A stretch of DNA of 64,000 bases from Escherichia phage kaaroe. The position numbers and the translations under genes are program-made. The notes under the pieces are model-generated. The model did no database searches and had not been told where the DNA came from. It saw only the letters and a list, made by a program, of their open reading frames with translations. Location: the sequence record MN850574.1; one strand, given 5' to 3'. Shown here piece after piece: positions 1,698 to 48,831 of the stretch. Numbering within the stretch: the first letter of the stretch is position 1; the number at the start of each line of letters is the position of its first letter.

Positions 1698-3521
1698 ATG
1701 AGTGAGTTTCGCATTTTATCTGATCGTGAACATGTCCTTAAGCGTGCAGGAATGTATATAGGATCAACAACTTACGAAGAACATCAACGTTTCCTGTTCG
1801 GTAAATGGACAAAAATTTCATACGTTCCTGGACTGGTTAAAATCATTGATGAGATCATCGACAACTCTGTAGACGAGGCGATCCGCACTAACTTTGAATT
1901 TGCCAATGTGATTAGCGTCGATATCCAAAACAATATTGTTACTGTAACAGACAATGGTCGCGGTATTCCTCAACATATGGTTACTACCCCAGAGGGTACG
2001 CAGATTCCGCAACCTGTCGCCGCATGGACACGAACAAAAGCAGGGTCTAACTTTGATGATACCAATCGATTAACGCAAGGGATGAACGGTGTGGGGTCGT
2101 CGTTGTCAAATTTCTTTAGCGATTGGTTTACTGGTGTGACCTGTGACGGCGAAACAGAAATGACCGTTCAATGTACAAACGGTGCTGAAAATATCACATG
2201 GTCATCGAAACCATCAAAATTGAAGGGAACAAAGGTTACATTTTGCCCAGACTTCGACCACTTCGAAGGTTATATGATGGGCAACTCTGTTTTAGATATT
2301 GTTCATGATCGTCTGCAATCATTGAGCGTAATATTTCCTAAGATCACGTTTAAGTTTAATGGTAAACGTATTGTTAGTAAGTTCAAGGATTATGCTAAAC
2401 TATACAATGATGATCCGTTTGTCATTGAAGATAAAAACTTTTCACTTGCCCTAGTTCCTGCGGTCGAGGGAGAAGGTTTTAAATCAGTATCCTTTGCTAA
2501 TGGTCTGTTTACCAAAAACGGGGGAACACACGTTGATTATGTGACAGATGATCTTTGTGAAGAGATTGTAAAACGAATCAAGAAAGAATATAAGGTTGAT
2601 GTTACTAAAGCTGCGGTTAAGTCTGGATTGACCTGTATTCTTATTGTTCGTGAATTGCCTAACCTTCGTTTTGATTCACAGACAAAAGAACGATTGACTA
2701 ATCCAACTGGTGATATCAAGCGTCATATTGATCTTGATTTTAAAAAGCTGGCTAAAGTCATTGCTAAGAAAGAAAACATTATCATGCCTATTATTGCTGT
2801 AGTCCTGGCACGCAAAGAGGCAGCAGATAAAGCGGCAGCGACTAAGGCAGCAAAGGCAGCGAAACGGGCTAAGGTGGCAAAACACGTTAAAGCTAACCTT
2901 ATTGGAACTGACGCAGAAACTACCCTGTTTTTGACGGAAGGTGATTCCGCGATCAACTATCTGATCTCTGTACGTGATCAAGATTTACATGGAGGTTTCC
3001 CGTTGCGAGGCAAAACTCTTACAACGTGGGAACAACCGGAGGCAAAGATCGTTAAGAACGCCGAAATTTTTAACATCATGGCGATCACTGGCTTGCAATT
3101 TGGTGTTGATGCATTGGAAGTTATGCAATACAAAAATATTGCGATTATGACCGACGCTGATACTGACGGGATCGGGTCTATTAAACCTAGTCTGATCTCT
3201 TTCTTTGCACGTTGGCCTGAATTGTTCGAAGATGGACGAATCCGGTTTATCAAAACACCTATTATCATTGCGGAACCAAAGAAAGGTGATGATGTTCGAT
3301 GGTATTATGACCTAGAAGATTTCGAGAACGACCGAGATAATATCAAAGGTTACAACATTCGATATATCAAAGGTTTAGCATCGCTCACAGAATCAGACTA
3401 TCATCGCGTGATCAACGATCCTGTCATGGAGATCATCACGTTACCGGAAAACTATAAAGAGCTATTCGATTTGCTCTATAGTGAAGATGCAGATCAGCGC
3501 AAAATTTGGATGCAATCATAA
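1698..3521 (+). CDS. 39: DNA topoisomerase II large subunit (GyrB-like; gp39 and gp60 regions in one continuous ORF)
   Basis: 607 aa; GHKL ATPase motifs (DNSVDEAI, DNGRGIP, GMNGVGSS) and Toprim motifs (LTEGDSA, MTDADTDG); T4 gp39-like N-terminus. Confidence 0.93.
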   Translation: MSEFRILSDREHVLKRAGMYIGSTTYEEHQRFLFGKWTKISYVPGLVKIIDEIIDNSVDEAIRTNFEFANVISVDIQNNIVTVTDNGRGIPQHMVTTPEGTQIPQPVAAWTRTKAGSNFDDTNRLTQGMNGVGSSLSNFFSDWFTGVTCDGETEMTVQCTNGAENITWSSKPSKLKGTKVTFCPDFDHFEGYMMGNSVLDIVHDRLQSLSVIFPKITFKFNGKRIVSKFKDYAKLYNDDPFVIEDKNFSLALVPAVEGEGFKSVSFANGLFTKNGGTHVDYVTDDLCEEIVKRIKKEYKVDVTKAAVKSGLTCILIVRELPNLRFDSQTKERLTNPTGDIKRHIDLDFKKLAKVIAKKENIIMPIIAVVLARKEAADKAAATKAAKAAKRAKVAKHVKANLIGTDAETTLFLTEGDSAINYLISVRDQDLHGGFPLRGKTLTTWEQPEAKIVKNAEIFNIMAITGLQFGVDALEVMQYKNIAIMTDADTDGIGSIKPSLISFFARWPELFEDGRIRFIKTPIIIAEPKKGDDVRWYYDLEDFENDRDNIKGYNIRYIKGLASLTESDYHRVINDPVMEIITLPENYKELFDLLYSEDADQRKIWMQS

Positions 3522-3524
3522 CAC

Positions 3525-3563
3525 TTGACATACAAGGGAGATTCTCTATAATGGGAGTCTCCC
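3525..3563 (+). promoter_or_regulatory. sigma70-type early promoter with palindromic spacer (PeSL-like)
   Basis: TTGACA, 16-nt spacer, TATAAT; -10 sits between inverted repeats GGGAGA/TCTCCC. Confidence 0.55.
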
Positions 3564-32582: not shown

Positions 32583-32851
32583 TGAAAGTCGGTATTATTC
32601 AATTATGGACGGCTACCAGTGAAAACTACGCAGTAGCCGTAGATTATTACGGTTTACAATATCTCTATGATGAAGCGAGCGCATCATGGCTTCCTGTGCA
32701 AGAAAATAGCGATATATCAAGACCTGCTACTATATTCGACCGTGGCGTTGTCTTTATCGATATTGACGAGACAGTAGCAAAACTGCGTAAGAAAGCAATC
32801 AATAAGAAAAAGGTGATGTGGGATGAAAGAATATTTGAAACTATTGCGTGA
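32582..32851 (+). CDS. hypothetical protein (89 aa)
   Basis: Internal ATG of track ORF 32555-32851; 3' end overlaps td start. Confidence 0.45.
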   Translation: MKVGIIQLWTATSENYAVAVDYYGLQYLYDEASASWLPVQENSDISRPATIFDRGVVFIDIDETVAKLRKKAINKKKVMWDERIFETIA

Positions 32852-34055
32852 TGTTCTTGATAATGGATGGCCTCGTGAAGACCGAACTGGGGTAGGTACG
32901 CTATCTAAATTCGGCGCAGAGATGCGAATTGATTTAAGCAAGGGTTTCCCATTACTGACCACTAAAAAGATGGCTACAGCCTCTGTAATTGGCGAATTGC
33001 TATGGTTTATGGAGGGATCACTTGACCGCCGTCGCTTACAGGAAATTACACGCGGTAAGTTTGACGAAGAAGCCTTCGACATTTGGCGCGGCAACTGTCT
33101 TGATATGAAAGAAAAGAATCCTTTGCGATTCAATGGTTATAATGTCGGCAATATGTATGGTATGGCATGGCGACGCAAACCGATTCATCCACACGGTGAA
33201 ATCAAAATTAAGCGCGTTAAGAGCAAATATGCACATACATTTAAGCACCCGTGGGTAGAAGACTTTACGCCAACCAATGAAACAGAAGACCGTTTATGTG
33301 CTATCTGGCGTGGTATGCGTTATGAAGAGTTTGATTCTGAATATAATCAATTCTTAGTAGCAGACCACTGGAAGACTCAATCTAATTTTGTTAATGATGC
33401 ATATTGCTTGTGGGGATTCCAGGAATGGGTAGATGATGGTTATTTCGGTTATCTGCTTGATAGTGATTATCTGGGCGGGGATATTTTAGCGCCAGATACC
33501 ACGATCTTTGCTAGTATGGACGTAGACACATCGAGCACTAAAGACGATGAAGAATATGTCTATCGACCGAAGATTTGGGAAGACCAGTTACAAAACGTGA
33601 TTGAACAAATTAAAAACAATCCAACGGATCGACGTATCATCATTGACTCATGGAACGTACAAGGAACACATAATGCTGTATTAGGTGTATGTCATCCTTT
33701 CGTGCAATTCTACGTCAATGAAGGTAAACTGTCTTGTATGTGGTTTCAGCGAAGCGTAGACAGCTTTTTAGGCTTGCCCTTTAACGTCGCCAGCTATGCG
33801 CTGTTAACTCACATCATAGCGAAAATGTGTGATCTTGAGGTAGGAGAACTGATTTTCTCTGGTGGAGATACTCACATTTACAAAAACCATTTTGATCAAG
33901 TTATGGAACAGTTAAGCCGTGTTCCGTTTGATAAACCAACGATTGAGTTGCCGGAATTTAAATCTTTAGATGAGGTATTGACAAAGACTCCGAAAGACTT
34001 TAAAATTCACAACTATCAAAGCCATCCAGCAATCACCGCTCAAATGGCAGTATAA
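32823..34055 (+). CDS. td: thymidylate synthase with a ~130-aa internal insertion; no intron
   Basis: 410 aa continuous ORF; ThyA motifs (active-site CHPFVQFYV, RSVDSFLGLPFNVASYALL, SGGDTHIY, C-terminal AV). Confidence 0.88.
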   Translation: MKEYLKLLRDVLDNGWPREDRTGVGTLSKFGAEMRIDLSKGFPLLTTKKMATASVIGELLWFMEGSLDRRRLQEITRGKFDEEAFDIWRGNCLDMKEKNPLRFNGYNVGNMYGMAWRRKPIHPHGEIKIKRVKSKYAHTFKHPWVEDFTPTNETEDRLCAIWRGMRYEEFDSEYNQFLVADHWKTQSNFVNDAYCLWGFQEWVDDGYFGYLLDSDYLGGDILAPDTTIFASMDVDTSSTKDDEEYVYRPKIWEDQLQNVIEQIKNNPTDRRIIIDSWNVQGTHNAVLGVCHPFVQFYVNEGKLSCMWFQRSVDSFLGLPFNVASYALLTHIIAKMCDLEVGELIFSGGDTHIYKNHFDQVMEQLSRVPFDKPTIELPEFKSLDEVLTKTPKDFKIHNYQSHPAITAQMAV

Positions 34056-34123: not shown

Positions 34124-36367
34124 ATGATTAAAAATGTTGTTAAGTCTTCCGGTCTGACTGTTCCTTTTGAAAAAGAAAAAGTAATGAAAATTCTGGAAGC
34201 GGCAGCCGAAGGTCATAACGTTGATCCATATGAATTGTTTGATATGGTTGAACCACTTCTGACAGAAGGTATGTCTACCAACGATATCCAGAAAGTATTG
34301 ATTAAGGTCGCAGCAGATAACATTACTGTAGAAACACCCGATTATCAATATGTAGCAAGTAACCTTGCAATGTTCGCGCTTCGCAAATCAGTATACGGTC
34401 AATTCCAACCGATTGATTTTTACAGCCATATTGAGCGTAATATTGCAACCGGAAAATATGATCGCGAAATTCTGCAAAAGTATTCCCGTGAAGAAGTGGA
34501 ATATCTGGAGAAATTCATCGACCATAAACTTGATTTTAAAATGACCTATGCTGGTGCGATGCAGTTAAAAGAGAAATATCTTGTTCAAGATCGCAGCACT
34601 AAGAAAATCATCGAAACACCGCAATTTGCGTATATGCTGATCGGTATGTGCTTGCATCAAGAAGAGACAGAAAATCGACTTGAACATGTGATTGATTTTT
34701 ATAATGCGGTTGCGAATAAGCAAATCTCTCTGCCTACTCCGATTATGGCAGGTGTGCGTACCCCAACACGCCAATTTAGTTCGTGTGTGGTGATTGAAAG
34801 TGATGACTCATTGCAGGGTATTAATGAAACCGCAAATGCAATCATCAAGTATATTAGCAAGCGTGCTGGTATCGGTATCAACGCTGGCATGATTCGCGCG
34901 GAAGGATCTAAGATCGGGCATGGTGAAGTTCGTCATACTGGAGTTATCCCATTCTGGAAACATTTTCAGACTGCCGTTAAGTCATGCTCACAAGGCGGTA
35001 TTCGTGGCGGGGCAGCGACACTCTATTACCCAATGTGGCATTTAGAGTTTGAAAGTCTGATTGTGTTAAAGAACAATAAGGGCGTGGAAGATAACCGCAT
35101 TCGCCATCTTGACTACGGCGTACAGATTAATAACCTGATGGTAGAGCGATTCCTTAAACGGGATTACATTACTCTGTTTAGTCCAGATGTTGCGGGTGGC
35201 TTGTTGTGGGATCTGTACTTCCGAGACGAGGAAGGTTTCCGCCAACTTTACGAAAAACTGGAAAAAGATCCGAGTGTTCGTAAAACTCGTGTTAAAGCCG
35301 AAGACCTGTTTTTAGCGGTGGCAATTGAACGTTTTAACACTGGTCGAATCTATCCAACGTTCACAGACAACATGAACAATCACGGGGCGTTTATTCGTAA
35401 TGTAGCACCGATTAAACAATCTAACCTGTGTTGTGAAATTGCTCTGCCTACTAAACCGATGGGTCGTGATGATTCAGAGATCAGCCTATGTACTTTGGCA
35501 GCATATGTTTTAGGAAACTTTGATATCGAAAATATGGAAGAAGTAGAACGCATTGCTATGGTTATGGTGCGTGCACTTGACAACCTGTTAGATTATCAGG
35601 ATTATCCTGTAGAGCAAGCTATGACAGCCAAAAAACGTCGCTCTCTGGGTGTTGGGGTGACTAACTTTGCATCGTATCTCGCGGATAATTTCTTCACATA
35701 TGAAGACGCTAACGAGTTTACGCATAAAACGTTTGAACGCTTGCAATATGCTCTGATTAAGGCTAGTGTGCAACTGGCTAAAGAGAAGGGTGCTTGCGAA
35801 CTGATGCACGAAACCCGCTATGGTCGCGGTGAACTGCCTATCGACTGGTACAAAAAGACAGTAGATGAACTGGTTGATCCGGTGTATGAGATGGATTGGG
35901 AAGAACTGCGCGAAGACCTGAAAAAATATGGCATTCGTAATAGTACGCTTTCGGCTCTGATGCCTTGTGAGTCGTCTTCTCAGGTATCTAACAGCACAAA
36001 CGGTATTGAACCACCTCGCGGGATTGTATCGGTTAAAGGATCGAAAGAAGGGCAATTTAATCAGGTTATTCCGAACGTAGAGAATAATGCTGATGTTATT
36101 GACCTGCTTTGGACACTGATCAAGAAAGGTAACAAGCCCTATCTGACACTGGCAGCGATCATGCAGAAGTTTGTAGATCAGGCGATTAGTTCCAATACAT
36201 CCTATGATCCAAGCACTTATAAGACTGGTAAAGTCGATATTGCTGATGTGTTAGATGATATGTTGTTCGCTCAACATTACGGTCTGAAAACCCTGTATTA
36301 TGCGAACGTTCGCGACGGTGCAGATGGTACGGAAGACGCTAGCGAGTGCTCATCTTGCAAGCTGTAA
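34124..36367 (+). CDS. nrdA: ribonucleotide reductase large subunit (class Ia)
   Basis: 747 aa; N-terminal ATP-cone, active-site SNLCCEIALP, C-terminal CSSCKL. Confidence 0.93.
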   Translation: MIKNVVKSSGLTVPFEKEKVMKILEAAAEGHNVDPYELFDMVEPLLTEGMSTNDIQKVLIKVAADNITVETPDYQYVASNLAMFALRKSVYGQFQPIDFYSHIERNIATGKYDREILQKYSREEVEYLEKFIDHKLDFKMTYAGAMQLKEKYLVQDRSTKKIIETPQFAYMLIGMCLHQEETENRLEHVIDFYNAVANKQISLPTPIMAGVRTPTRQFSSCVVIESDDSLQGINETANAIIKYISKRAGIGINAGMIRAEGSKIGHGEVRHTGVIPFWKHFQTAVKSCSQGGIRGGAATLYYPMWHLEFESLIVLKNNKGVEDNRIRHLDYGVQINNLMVERFLKRDYITLFSPDVAGGLLWDLYFRDEEGFRQLYEKLEKDPSVRKTRVKAEDLFLAVAIERFNTGRIYPTFTDNMNNHGAFIRNVAPIKQSNLCCEIALPTKPMGRDDSEISLCTLAAYVLGNFDIENMEEVERIAMVMVRALDNLLDYQDYPVEQAMTAKKRRSLGVGVTNFASYLADNFFTYEDANEFTHKTFERLQYALIKASVQLAKEKGACELMHETRYGRGELPIDWYKKTVDELVDPVYEMDWEELREDLKKYGIRNSTLSALMPCESSSQVSNSTNGIEPPRGIVSVKGSKEGQFNQVIPNVENNADVIDLLWTLIKKGNKPYLTLAAIMQKFVDQAISSNTSYDPSTYKTGKVDIADVLDDMLFAQHYGLKTLYYANVRDGADGTEDASECSSCKL

Positions 36368-36375
36368 AATAAGTG

Positions 36376-36404
36376 TTGACGCGGGGAGAAATCCCCGCTA
36401 TAAT
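36376..36404 (+). promoter_or_regulatory. PeSL-like early promoter cassette
   Basis: TTGACG, CGGGGA-GAAA-TCCCCG hairpin in spacer, TATAAT. Confidence 0.55.
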
Positions 36405-36603
36405 ACAACCATCAAAAACAAGTGAGGATTTTATTATGACCAAATTAAAATGTGTTGCTGTAGATTTTTGAACTAGCTGATAGCTTTGTTGTTGGTGATG
36501 AATATGATGCTCAACATGATGGGACTTGCTACTACGTCGAGGATGAATATGGTGTAGAATGGGCGATTCTTCCTGATGATAAATGTTTTGAGGTTGTCGG
36601 ATA

Positions 36604-36777
36604 ATGGCTACTGTATGGTTATTGATTGCAATCAGCAATTCAATGTATAATTACGGAAATATGTCAAGCATTGAATTTGCAACAAAGCAGGATTGCGTTA
36701 AAGCTCGCGAGATTATCCGCGAAGACAATAAACGCTTTATGAATCTATATTGCGTTGAAAAACAAAAGGTGAACTAA
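36604..36777 (+). CDS. small protein (57 aa), tandem paralog A
   Basis: MATVWLLIAISNSMYNYGNMSSIEFATKQDC...; below ORF-track cutoff. Confidence 0.5.
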   Translation: MATVWLLIAISNSMYNYGNMSSIEFATKQDCVKAREIIREDNKRFMNLYCVEKQKVN

Positions 36778-36944
36778 TGGCTACATTATGGTTATTGCTT
36801 TCCGTTAGCGTAGGCTCATATAATAAAGGAACTGTTACCAGCGTGGAGTTTTCATCACATCAAAGCTGTTTTGAAGCCGTGCAGGAATTGCAACAGGATA
36901 ACGAAATAAACAGAAATACTAAGTTCTTTTGTGTTAAAAAGTGA
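36777..36944 (+). CDS. small protein (55 aa), tandem paralog B
   Basis: MATLWLLLSVSVGSYNKGTVTSVEFSSHQSC...; start overlaps paralog A stop (TAATG). Confidence 0.5.
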   Translation: MATLWLLLSVSVGSYNKGTVTSVEFSSHQSCFEAVQELQQDNEINRNTKFFCVKK

Positions 36945-36959
36945 TAGTGAGGTGAATTA

Positions 36960-38120
36960 ATGAGCGTATTTAACCGCGAACATGTTGATATTATGAACGA
37001 ACCAATGTTTCTGGGTAGTGGGTTGGGTATCGCTCGCTATGATATTCAGCGTCATCAAGTATTTGAAGAACTGATCGAAAAGCAATTGTCATTTTTCTGG
37101 CGTCCAGAAGAAATTTCACTTGCAACCGACCGCATTCAATATCTTAATATGGGTGACGTTGAAAAGCGTTTCTTTACTGAAAACTTGAAGTATCAGACAT
37201 TACTTGATTCTATTCAAGGTCGCGCACCGTCCGCAGCATTTGGTCCAATTGTATCTGATCCAACTCTCGATACATGGTTGCAAACATGGACATTCAGCGA
37301 AACGATTCATAGCCGAAGCTATACACACATTATGCGTAACTGTTTCATTGATCCGGCTAGTGAGTTCGACCAGATCATCGATAACCCTGCTATCATGAAG
37401 CGAGCGGAATCTATCGGGAAATATTATGATGATGTTCTTTATTGGATTCGTAAGTATGAGAATGCAAAAGAAGATCTCCGCTATTGGGAAGAACGAGACG
37501 ACCAGACAGCATTAGATGATGCAAGAAGATTTTTTGAAGATACAAAACGAGATCTGATGGCTTCGATTTATCTGTGTGCACACTGCGTCAATGCACTGGA
37601 AGCAATTCGTTTTTATGTGTCCTTTGCATGTACTTTCAGCTTTGCCGAACGTGGTTTACTGGAAGGTAACGCGAAGATCATGAAATTTATTGCGCGTGAT
37701 GAACAACTTCACTTAAAAGGCACACAATACATTATTCGTCAATGGCAAACGGGGGTTGATGGTGATGAGTGGAAACAGATTGCGGAAGAACTTGAAGGCG
37801 AAGCAACGAAAATCTTTCTGGATGTTGTCGAGCAAGAAAAAGAATGGGTAGACCACCTATTCGCAATGGGGGCAATTCCTAACCTGTCACCGGAAATTCT
37901 GAAAACCTATGTAGAATACCTGGCAGATTCCCGTATGCGTGCTGCCGGACTGAAAAGCCCGTTTAGTGTTCGTCGTCATCCGTTACCGTGGATGCGTAAA
38001 TGGTTGAACTCTGACGAAGTACAGAATGCAGCGCAGGAAGTAGAGATTATGTATCTGGTATCTCAGGTTAATACCGATTTAACAGATGACGACTACAACC
38101 GATTCGGGAAATATCTATGA
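36960..38120 (+). CDS. nrdB: ribonucleotide reductase small subunit; no intron
   Basis: 386 aa; di-iron ExxH motifs (FSETIHSRSYTH, ARDEQLH); GAGGTG SD. Confidence 0.9.
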   Translation: MSVFNREHVDIMNEPMFLGSGLGIARYDIQRHQVFEELIEKQLSFFWRPEEISLATDRIQYLNMGDVEKRFFTENLKYQTLLDSIQGRAPSAAFGPIVSDPTLDTWLQTWTFSETIHSRSYTHIMRNCFIDPASEFDQIIDNPAIMKRAESIGKYYDDVLYWIRKYENAKEDLRYWEERDDQTALDDARRFFEDTKRDLMASIYLCAHCVNALEAIRFYVSFACTFSFAERGLLEGNAKIMKFIARDEQLHLKGTQYIIRQWQTGVDGDEWKQIAEELEGEATKIFLDVVEQEKEWVDHLFAMGAIPNLSPEILKTYVEYLADSRMRAAGLKSPFSVRRHPLPWMRKWLNSDEVQNAAQEVEIMYLVSQVNTDLTDDDYNRFGKYL

Positions 38121-38593
38121 TATATTTTGTCGATTTAGATTTTACGATCACAGATCCAACACATCGACTAGCAAAGATGCCAACCGAAAATCTTGATAAA
38201 GTCGAGTCATGGATCGAATATAACAAAGCATGTGGGGGAGATTCCCCCATTTACGATGTAATTCGTGTTATTAATGCTCTTTCCGACAACGGGCATTTGA
38301 TTTACATCCTCACCGGACGAAGTTCACATGCTTACATGGAAACAATTGATTGGTTAATTTCTAACGGGGTGTGTTTTGATAAAATCTTTATGAGAGGCCG
38401 TACCGATTCCCGTAAAGATTATCACATCAAATTAGAGGTAATTAAATCCTTTGATAAAGATGAAGTTGTCGGAGTCTTTGAGGATAACCCAGAAGTGATT
38501 AAAGTTTTGCGTGAAAATGGTTATCGTGTCTTTGACGTAGGAAATCACAAAGATAAGACGCGAGCGGATATTGCAAATCACGGTCATGATTAA
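38117..38593 (+). CDS. HAD-superfamily phosphatase-like protein (resembles the Pnk phosphatase domain)
   Basis: 158 aa; N-terminal FVDLDFTIT (DxDxT); similar to the C-terminal half of the pseT product in this window. Confidence 0.6.
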   Translation: MIYFVDLDFTITDPTHRLAKMPTENLDKVESWIEYNKACGGDSPIYDVIRVINALSDNGHLIYILTGRSSHAYMETIDWLISNGVCFDKIFMRGRTDSRKDYHIKLEVIKSFDKDEVVGVFEDNPEVIKVLRENGYRVFDVGNHKDKTRADIANHGHD

Positions 38594-48802: not shown

Positions 48803-48831
48803 TTGACAGGGGATCGGTGATCCCCTATAAT
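48803..48831 (+). promoter_or_regulatory. PeSL-like early promoter cassette
   Basis: TTGACA, GGGGATCGGTGATCCCC, TATAAT; conserved leader. Confidence 0.6.

Follow-up and report, generated by a model that had tools for sequence, protein, structure and literature searches.

What occupies the spacer between the ribonucleotide reductase genes nrdA and nrdB of Escherichia phage kaaroe, and what could the small genes found there contribute to the phage? The question concerns a 64,000-nt stretch of DNA (record MN850574.1), which was analysed as a whole and is referred to below as the window. A preceding sequence-only reading had described a hairpin promoter between the two core genes, followed by two adjacent paralogous small genes, and had suggested that the spacer is a recurrent insertion hotspot.

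Phage identity and borders of the locus

The window belongs to a Krischvirus, i.e. an RB49-like, T4-type coliphage. Of the 58 phage records matched by the 651 bases surrounding the finding, nearly all are Krischvirus genomes (RB49, phi1, JSE and their relatives) with 95–99.8% identity; the closest match is Escherichia phage FL38. The upstream border of the locus is nrdA (34124–36367, + strand), a 747-aa ORF annotated in RB49 and its relatives as the gene for the large subunit of class Ia ribonucleotide reductase (RNR). Downstream lies nrdB (36960–38120, + strand), annotated in RB49 and encoding the RNR small subunit, which is preceded by the Shine-Dalgarno sequence GAGGTGA (36949–36955, + strand). 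An Rfam scan of positions 36200–37100 found no RNA family.

In the RB49 annotation of the same stretch, nrdA is followed by the genes of three hypothetical proteins, RB49p233, p232 and p231, and then by nrdB. The small genes of the window are orthologues of RB49p231–p233 (ORF231–233 of phi1) with 93–100% identity and the same order, except for a frameshift in the p233 homologue. All three products are hypothetical (phrog_5579 and phrog_16302), and the placement of p231 and p232 in one family has been implicit only in the PHROG clustering. The promoter and the two small genes of the sequence-only reading are thus both present, but a third gene, the RB49p233 homologue, lies between them and had been missed.

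Two further genes near the locus have unusual features. The thymidylate synthase encoded at 32823–34055 has 410 aa, and the 266-position Pfam model covers its residues 2–410, leaving about 140 residues of insertions; the long form is also found in JSE (about 407 aa) and in the metagenomic relative L010 (412 aa). The gene at 38117–38593, which overlaps the nrdB stop codon, encodes only a phosphatase domain of the HAD-type PNKP kind (158 aa), and is named “polynucleotide kinase” or “3′-phosphatase” depending on the public record.

A promoter-early stem-loop directly downstream of nrdA

The spacer opens with a compact element at 36376–36404 (+ strand), beginning 8 nt past the nrdA stop codon. It consists of a −35 hexamer TTGACG (36376–36381), a stem-loop GCGGGGA-GAAA-TCCCCGC (36381–36398) and a −10 hexamer TATAAT (36399–36404). 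The hexamers match the σ70 consensus at 11 of 12 positions, and the 17-nt promoter spacer between them, within the 16–18 nt expected of a PeSL, is almost wholly taken up by the hairpin, which has a 7-bp stem (GCGGGGA/TCCCCGC) and a GAAA loop. The hairpin region has a folding energy of −19 kcal/mol (z = −5.3). An A/T-rich stretch, AAAATAAGTG, is located directly upstream; the context of the element reads TAA-AATAAGTG-TTGACG, with GTGAGGA and an ATG 18–32 nt downstream.

Promoter-early stem-loops (PeSLs) have been defined as σ70 consensus promoters with an A/T-rich upstream region and a G-tract/C-tract stem-loop between −35 and −10, located ahead of an ORFan and its Shine-Dalgarno sequence (PMC2839356). 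Judged by its hexamers, stem-loop, A/T-rich context and repetition at indel boundaries, the site at 36376–36404 corresponds to this published description, and the hairpin promoter proposed between nrdA and nrdB is confirmed at the sequence level. The element resembles the PeSL cassettes of the RB49/phi1 type, in which the GGGG/CCCC stem-loop is the commonest subclass (Arbiol, Comeau & Krisch 2010, PMC2839356; Comeau et al. 2014, PMC4122927). The likeness extends to its position, with a stop codon immediately upstream and a small ORFan preceded by a Shine-Dalgarno sequence downstream, as well as to its repetition in the genome. Unlike the usual PeSLs, this copy is placed within a nucleotide-metabolism module, between two core genes, and not in a large hyperplastic region. 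“A few PeSLs” have been noted in conserved modules (PMC2839356); the text of that paper mentions neither an nrdA/nrdB PeSL nor ORF231–233 by name.

The exact 29-mer occurs once in the window, and a chance occurrence is not expected. The looser pattern TTGAC-N15-19-TATAAT is found at 12 sites, all of them on the + strand, against an expectation of 0.42. Three of the other sites (48803, 52082 and 54636) also hold GGGG...CCCC hairpins in their spacers and share a downstream Shine-Dalgarno sequence; they probably mark a PeSL-rich hyperplastic region. The 12 perfect sites span positions 3525–54664. The flanks of the copies at 48803, 52082 and 54636 are near-identical, with AAGTTG upstream and ACACACATA...AGGAGAATCAAA downstream.

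Of the 24 sequences compared, 21 have an unchanged PeSL, as does the diverged relative L010; in Makalu_003 the −10 hexamer is altered to TATACT. The site is already annotated in public records: that of GEC-3S calls it a promoter, that of Makalu_003 a terminator. Both promoter and terminator/attenuator activity have been shown with lacZ tests for other PeSLs, namely 193/192, 206/205 and 211/210 (PMC2839356). By analogy with those elements, we infer that the nrdA–nrdB PeSL would attenuate read-through from nrdA and provide strong early re-initiation of transcription. Of the two proposed functions, termination is the less secure, because the hairpin has no U-tract: a terminator scan found no U-run after it and did not call it terminator-like.

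Variation of the nrdA–nrdB spacer among relatives

Six spacer architectures were distinguished among the relatives, the RB49 type being that of the window. In FL20 the spacer carries a single hybrid paralogue. Such a hybrid is also present in G37-3, together with a gene for a 179-aa endonuclease (HNH_3 and AP2 domains) located before nrdB. In JSE, AV108 and FL15 both paralogues have been deleted at a GATA microhomology, and a 215-aa NUMOD3 endonuclease is encoded between the nrdB Shine-Dalgarno sequence and the nrdB ATG (positions 2660–3385 of the JSE locus L020; also in loci L021 and L022). In Delraymugoa (L006, 595–1580) a C5-cytosine DNA methyltransferase gene has been placed between nrdA and the first small gene. 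It is flanked by two copies, differing by 1 base, of a 42-nt repeat composed of TGTAAAATAACTG and the PeSL, and this is exactly the PeSL-flanked cassette described by Arbiol et al. (PMC2839356).

The sixth arrangement comes from the metagenomic locus L010 (1753–4940), where nrdA is split into parts of 476 and 324 aa by the gene of a 237-aa I-HmuI/NUMOD-like endonuclease. An identical PeSL follows, then one member of the paralogue family and then nrdB; the first small gene is absent. The split gene resembles nrdA of Aeromonas phage Aeh1, which is likewise interrupted by an endonuclease gene (PMC3045599).

The nrd region of T-even phages has been called “a hotspot of endonuclease insertion”, with mobE located between nrdA and nrdB (Wilson & Edgell 2009, PMC2790892). 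T4 combines the order nrdA-mobE-nrdB with an nrdB intron carrying I-TevIII (PMC2790892), and the same inter-subunit spacer accepts free-standing homing endonucleases in the Krischvirus relatives. Unlike T4, the window represents an “empty”, ORFan-filled allele: no endonuclease ORF (HNH, GIY-YIG or NUMOD) and no intron were found in its nrdA–nrdB spacer. The variants of the relatives directly support the view, already put forward in the sequence-only reading, that the spacer is an insertion hotspot; this view also agrees with the literature on T-even phages.

Two paralogous mini-genes under purifying selection

Paralogue A (the RB49p232 homologue; 36604–36777, + strand) encodes 57 aa, and paralogue B (the RB49p231 homologue; 36777–36944, + strand) 55 aa. 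Both were identified as ORFs and by profile matches to phrog_5579, which extend over positions 1–52 of the 52-position profile (E = 6.8e-24 for A and 1.2e-24 for B). Both genes are provided with a Shine-Dalgarno sequence of their own and are TAATG-coupled, the start codon of B overlapping the stop codon of A. In BLASTP the two proteins share 40% identity and 71% positives (E = 1e-16), in agreement with their earlier description as paralogues joined by TAATG.

The sequence-only reading depended on conservation of the two frames in relatives, and both are intact in every examined relative that carries them. For A, pS is 0.13 and pN 0.0065, giving a pN/pS of 0.05 (18 genomes, 12 distinct sequences); the corresponding ratio for B is 0.27 (20 genomes, 18 distinct sequences). 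By this substitution pattern, A and B are real coding genes under purifying selection.

The identity between A and B (40–42%) lies within the range that each shows to homologues in other phages (39–52%). Since A is no closer to B than to those homologues, the pair goes back either to an old duplication or to two separate acquisitions. Their 5′ ends are more alike than the rest: the first 35 nt, including the TAATG, are 80% identical, as compared with 57% over the whole genes. This similarity constitutes a direct repeat, recognized by sequence comparison of its copies at 36602–36636 and 36775–36809 (both + strand), with a spacing of 173 nt. In FL20 and G37-3 the single hybrid gene has an A-like start (MATV) and continues as B (MATV+WLLLSVSVG...), and the spacer is shorter by exactly 173 nt; the length arithmetic fits (591 − 2 − 173 = 416). 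Judging from this agreement, the 35-nt direct repeat is the substrate of the unequal crossover that produced the hybrid paralogue of FL20 and G37-3. The metagenomic protein P0004 is another A/B chimera.

Predicted fold and the membrane question

AlphaFold, run with a 41-sequence alignment, predicted for A the order β(5–11)-β(20–25)-α(28–41)-β(46–52). The pLDDT rose from 68 with a 15-sequence alignment to 87 (pTM 0.69) with 41 sequences, and all five models scored 83.6–87. An independent BFVD model of the paralogue B orthologue of Makalu_003 superposes on this prediction with a TM-score of 0.83–0.86; the rest of the BFVD matches comprised only dozens of uncharacterised phage proteins of 50–65 aa. 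Foldseek, queried with the initial model of low confidence, matched no PDB structure at E < 0.4. The best structural match was the periplasmic domain of MzrA (PDB 4pwu), with 12% sequence identity; the window proteins differ in having no transmembrane segment. The score of this match falls within the range of generic ferredoxin-like half-folds (ClpS, PII, RRM) and justifies no functional inference.

The hydrophobic N-termini of A and B had been pointed out earlier, by implication as a sign of membrane or secreted proteins. The apolar N-terminal run is 11–14 residues long, and the best 19-residue Kyte-Doolittle mean of the proteins is 0.61 in A and 0.81 in B. The usual threshold for a membrane span is a 19-residue mean of about 1.6, and a signal peptide would have a basic n-region. 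No K or R precedes the hydrophobic run in either protein, and the segment is modelled as a β strand (block pLDDT 87). It is predicted to be a core strand of a soluble protein and not a membrane helix, and the implied membrane or export signal is not borne out. The proteins could still be exported or membrane-anchored if a short signal peptide were cut after the conserved S-x-G/S (residues 11–13) and the cysteine pair formed a periplasmic disulfide. Given the low hydropathy peaks and the modelled strand, we regard this as unlikely.

The sequence-only reading noted one conserved Cys; conservation holds, but two residues are concerned, C31 and C50 (A numbering), which are invariant in 41 diverse family members. 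According to the β-α-β topology of the model, C31, in the first turn of the helix, and C50, at the end of strand 3, are probably close together.

The phrog_5579 family and a possible role in nucleotide metabolism

A HMMER scan of 1.84 billion representative sequences collected 93 family proteins at E ≤ 1e-3, nearly all of 50–70 aa, where a word-indexed search had given about 20 clusters; IMG/VR added just 2 loci. From the 41-member alignment we derived the features of the family, i.e. the motif WLL(I/L)..S, G18, F25 and the two cysteines, all of which are present in A and B; L7, G18 and F25 are at least 90% conserved. Pfam scans of the three mini-proteins of the window and of 10 distant family members gave nothing above noise, and the family profile matched no PDB sequence. 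All members are uncharacterised, and the family has no Pfam entry. When distant members were used in tblastn, almost no cultured phages beyond Krischvirus were found, with one Koutsourovirus and some marginal matches as the exceptions. An unannotated 56-aa member was located in a gap of the public annotation of Enterobacter phage SDFMU_EhYP (L007, 2644–2814).

Nine genomic contexts of distant members had no constant neighbour, so guilt by association yields no function. In each case the surroundings consist of a run of small early or DNA-metabolism genes. One member is flanked by td and frd, with genes for an RNR-like protein and a glutaredoxin nearby, and two others are within 2 kb of a dCMP deaminase gene. 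The member of the T7-like phage SDFMU_EhYP is placed between the genes for a helicase-like ATPase and DNA polymerase, and further ones are found among unrelated small genes or sugar-synthesis genes.

Two diverged lineages, Krischvirus and L010, retain a family member between nrdA and nrdB, and another phage has one between td and frd; this retention could point to a nucleotide-metabolism role instead of a generic accessory one. In its most specific form, this would make A and B RNR helpers, i.e. mini redox or metal-centre proteins comparable to YfaE or NrdH, whose cysteine pair (possibly four cysteines in a dimer) maintains or reduces NrdA/NrdB. The td–frd and dCMP deaminase contexts and the two invariant cysteines are compatible with such a function. 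Against it, JSE, AV108 and FL15 keep nrdA and nrdB without either copy, and other members are found between helicase and DNA polymerase genes or among unrelated small and sugar-synthesis genes. Thioredoxin, glutaredoxin and NrdH have a CXXC site and the thioredoxin fold, and proteins of the YfaE type have a four-cysteine 2Fe-2S ferredoxin motif. In phrog_5579 there is no CXXC, the cysteines are 19–21 residues apart, Pfam and PDB sequence matches are lacking, and no similarity to thioredoxin, glutaredoxin or ferredoxin was seen in sequence or among the top fold matches. The RNR-helper role is accordingly a poor candidate, even less probable than export.

The same low standing applies to a wider version, in which phrog_5579 comprises widespread, unrecognised phage thiol or metal-centre proteins whose cysteine pair (a four-cysteine A/B heterodimer is conceivable) tunes deoxynucleotide synthesis as a minimal analogue of YfaE/NrdH. 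If true, it would account for the retention of a family member at the nrdA–nrdB or td–frd junction of separate lineages. To both the RNR-helper and the exported-peptide ideas we prefer a generic, early-acting accessory mini-protein with a binding partner.

A frameshifted first gene

The gene missing from the earlier description is the RB49p233 homologue (phrog_16302; 36436–36604, + strand), which lies between the PeSL and paralogue A and is TAATG-joined to the latter. Its Shine-Dalgarno sequence, GTGAGGA (36422–36428, + strand), stands 7 nt before the ATG at 36436 and is annotated as a ribosome binding site in Makalu_003. The frame is disrupted: 11 codons are followed by a TGA at 36469–36471 (reading TTT TGA), caused by an extra T in a run of five at 36465–36469, where RB49 has four. 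The other 44 codons run on in the +1 frame to a TAA at 36602–36604. The repaired product has 55 aa, matches phrog_16302 with E = 8e-41 and is very acidic (net charge −11). The extra T may be a real mutation, or it could be a homopolymer sequencing error. The five-T allele is common to the window, FL38 and FL04. The suggestion that this gene is a third, diverged paralogue, its product also having Cys at positions 31 and 50, was rejected (hhalign probability 0.2%).

The gene is intact in most Krischvirus records. Elsewhere its lesions include a GAG to TAG change at codon 12 (G37-3 and ELT3), a 2-nt deletion (FL37 and FL20), a 1-nt deletion in codon 4 (pEJ01) and a different +T insertion (AV108); GEC-3S carries an in-frame 21-nt duplication. 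The lesions were seen in the window and at loci L002–L004, L008, L009, L017, L018 and L021. Several phages with a disrupted first gene inherit one mutation by descent, on which ground a link to isolation on E. coli K-12 MG1655 was set aside. The count is at least five independent knock-outs in about 58 records, with none in paralogues A and B. The variety of the lesions argues that a dispensable or counter-selected gene has been lost repeatedly. Perhaps a host defence system senses the product of the gene, which would have driven the five or more independent knock-outs.

The stop codon could alternatively be bypassed by recoding, with a +1 shift at UUU UGA A (36466–36472), as in prfB, yielding small, regulated amounts of the complete 55-aa protein. 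At the site GAU UUU UGA A, a +1 slip of tRNA-Phe from UUU onto UUU would restore the ancestral frame exactly, and FL38 and FL04 have the same five-T allele. However, most relatives carry the plain in-frame four-T version, no Shine-Dalgarno-like stimulator is present upstream of the slip site, and at least four other, unrelated lesions disrupt the gene, among them the TAG at codon 12 in G37-3 and ELT3 as well as indels, a pattern that fits repeated loss of function. Recoding is highly improbable, and loss of function is the preferred interpretation of the lesion. That A and B, in turn, are chance open frames in a purely regulatory spacer, a view to which their very short length and lack of characterised homologues might lend itself, is already effectively refuted by the conservation data, i.e. 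the pN/pS values of 0.05 and 0.27, the individual Shine-Dalgarno sequences with TAATG coupling and the full-length homologues in unrelated phage lineages (93 representative clusters), besides the confident fold prediction.

Proposed explanation of the locus

Taken as a whole, the Krischvirus nrdA–nrdB spacer is best explained as a small hyperplastic PeSL cassette with three accessory mini-genes, a reading to which we assign a probability of about 0.8. The GC hairpin of the PeSL would attenuate transcription coming from nrdA, and its consensus σ70 promoter would restart strong early transcription, as in the PeSLs assayed elsewhere. The resulting transcript would carry the three mini-genes, serially coupled by TAATG, and then nrdB. 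The first of them, for an acidic 55-aa protein, appears to have been knocked out in this phage by the +1 T insertion. A and B are predicted to be soluble β-β-α-β proteins of about 55 aa, with the cysteine pair probably adjacent at the helix start and the end of strand 3.

The mini-genes would be accessory, being reduced to a single copy when crossover takes place in the 5′ repeat common to A and B, or lost when a homing endonuclease occupies the spacer. As judged from the natural genomes without them, A and B are shown to be dispensable in nature. They are likely to be neither RNR subunits nor membrane proteins, and we infer that their role is an early one in infection, as small proteins with a binding or modulating function. 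Homo- or hetero-oligomers are probable, because one face of the predicted sheet is hydrophobic.

Significance

Every element of the locus has already been described or annotated: PeSLs in the papers of 2010 and 2014, ORF231–233 in the RB49 and phi1 records, and the nrd hotspot in papers of 2009–2010. Promoter and terminator features are likewise already contained in the GEC-3S and Makalu_003 records. What this analysis adds is the overlooked third gene with its frameshift, a catalogue of the variants of the locus and a more precise account of the mini-protein family. The annotation of this genome should be corrected to three genes in the spacer, one of them disrupted. The practical value of these results is modest, and they leave current understanding unchallenged. 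With its large size, confident predicted fold and two invariant cysteines, phrog_5579 is a reasonable candidate for a family description and a simple biochemical test. For T4-type phages more generally, one small locus between two core genes documents several routes of genome remodelling, i.e. exchange at PeSL repeats, unequal crossover, deletion at microhomology and invasion by homing endonucleases.
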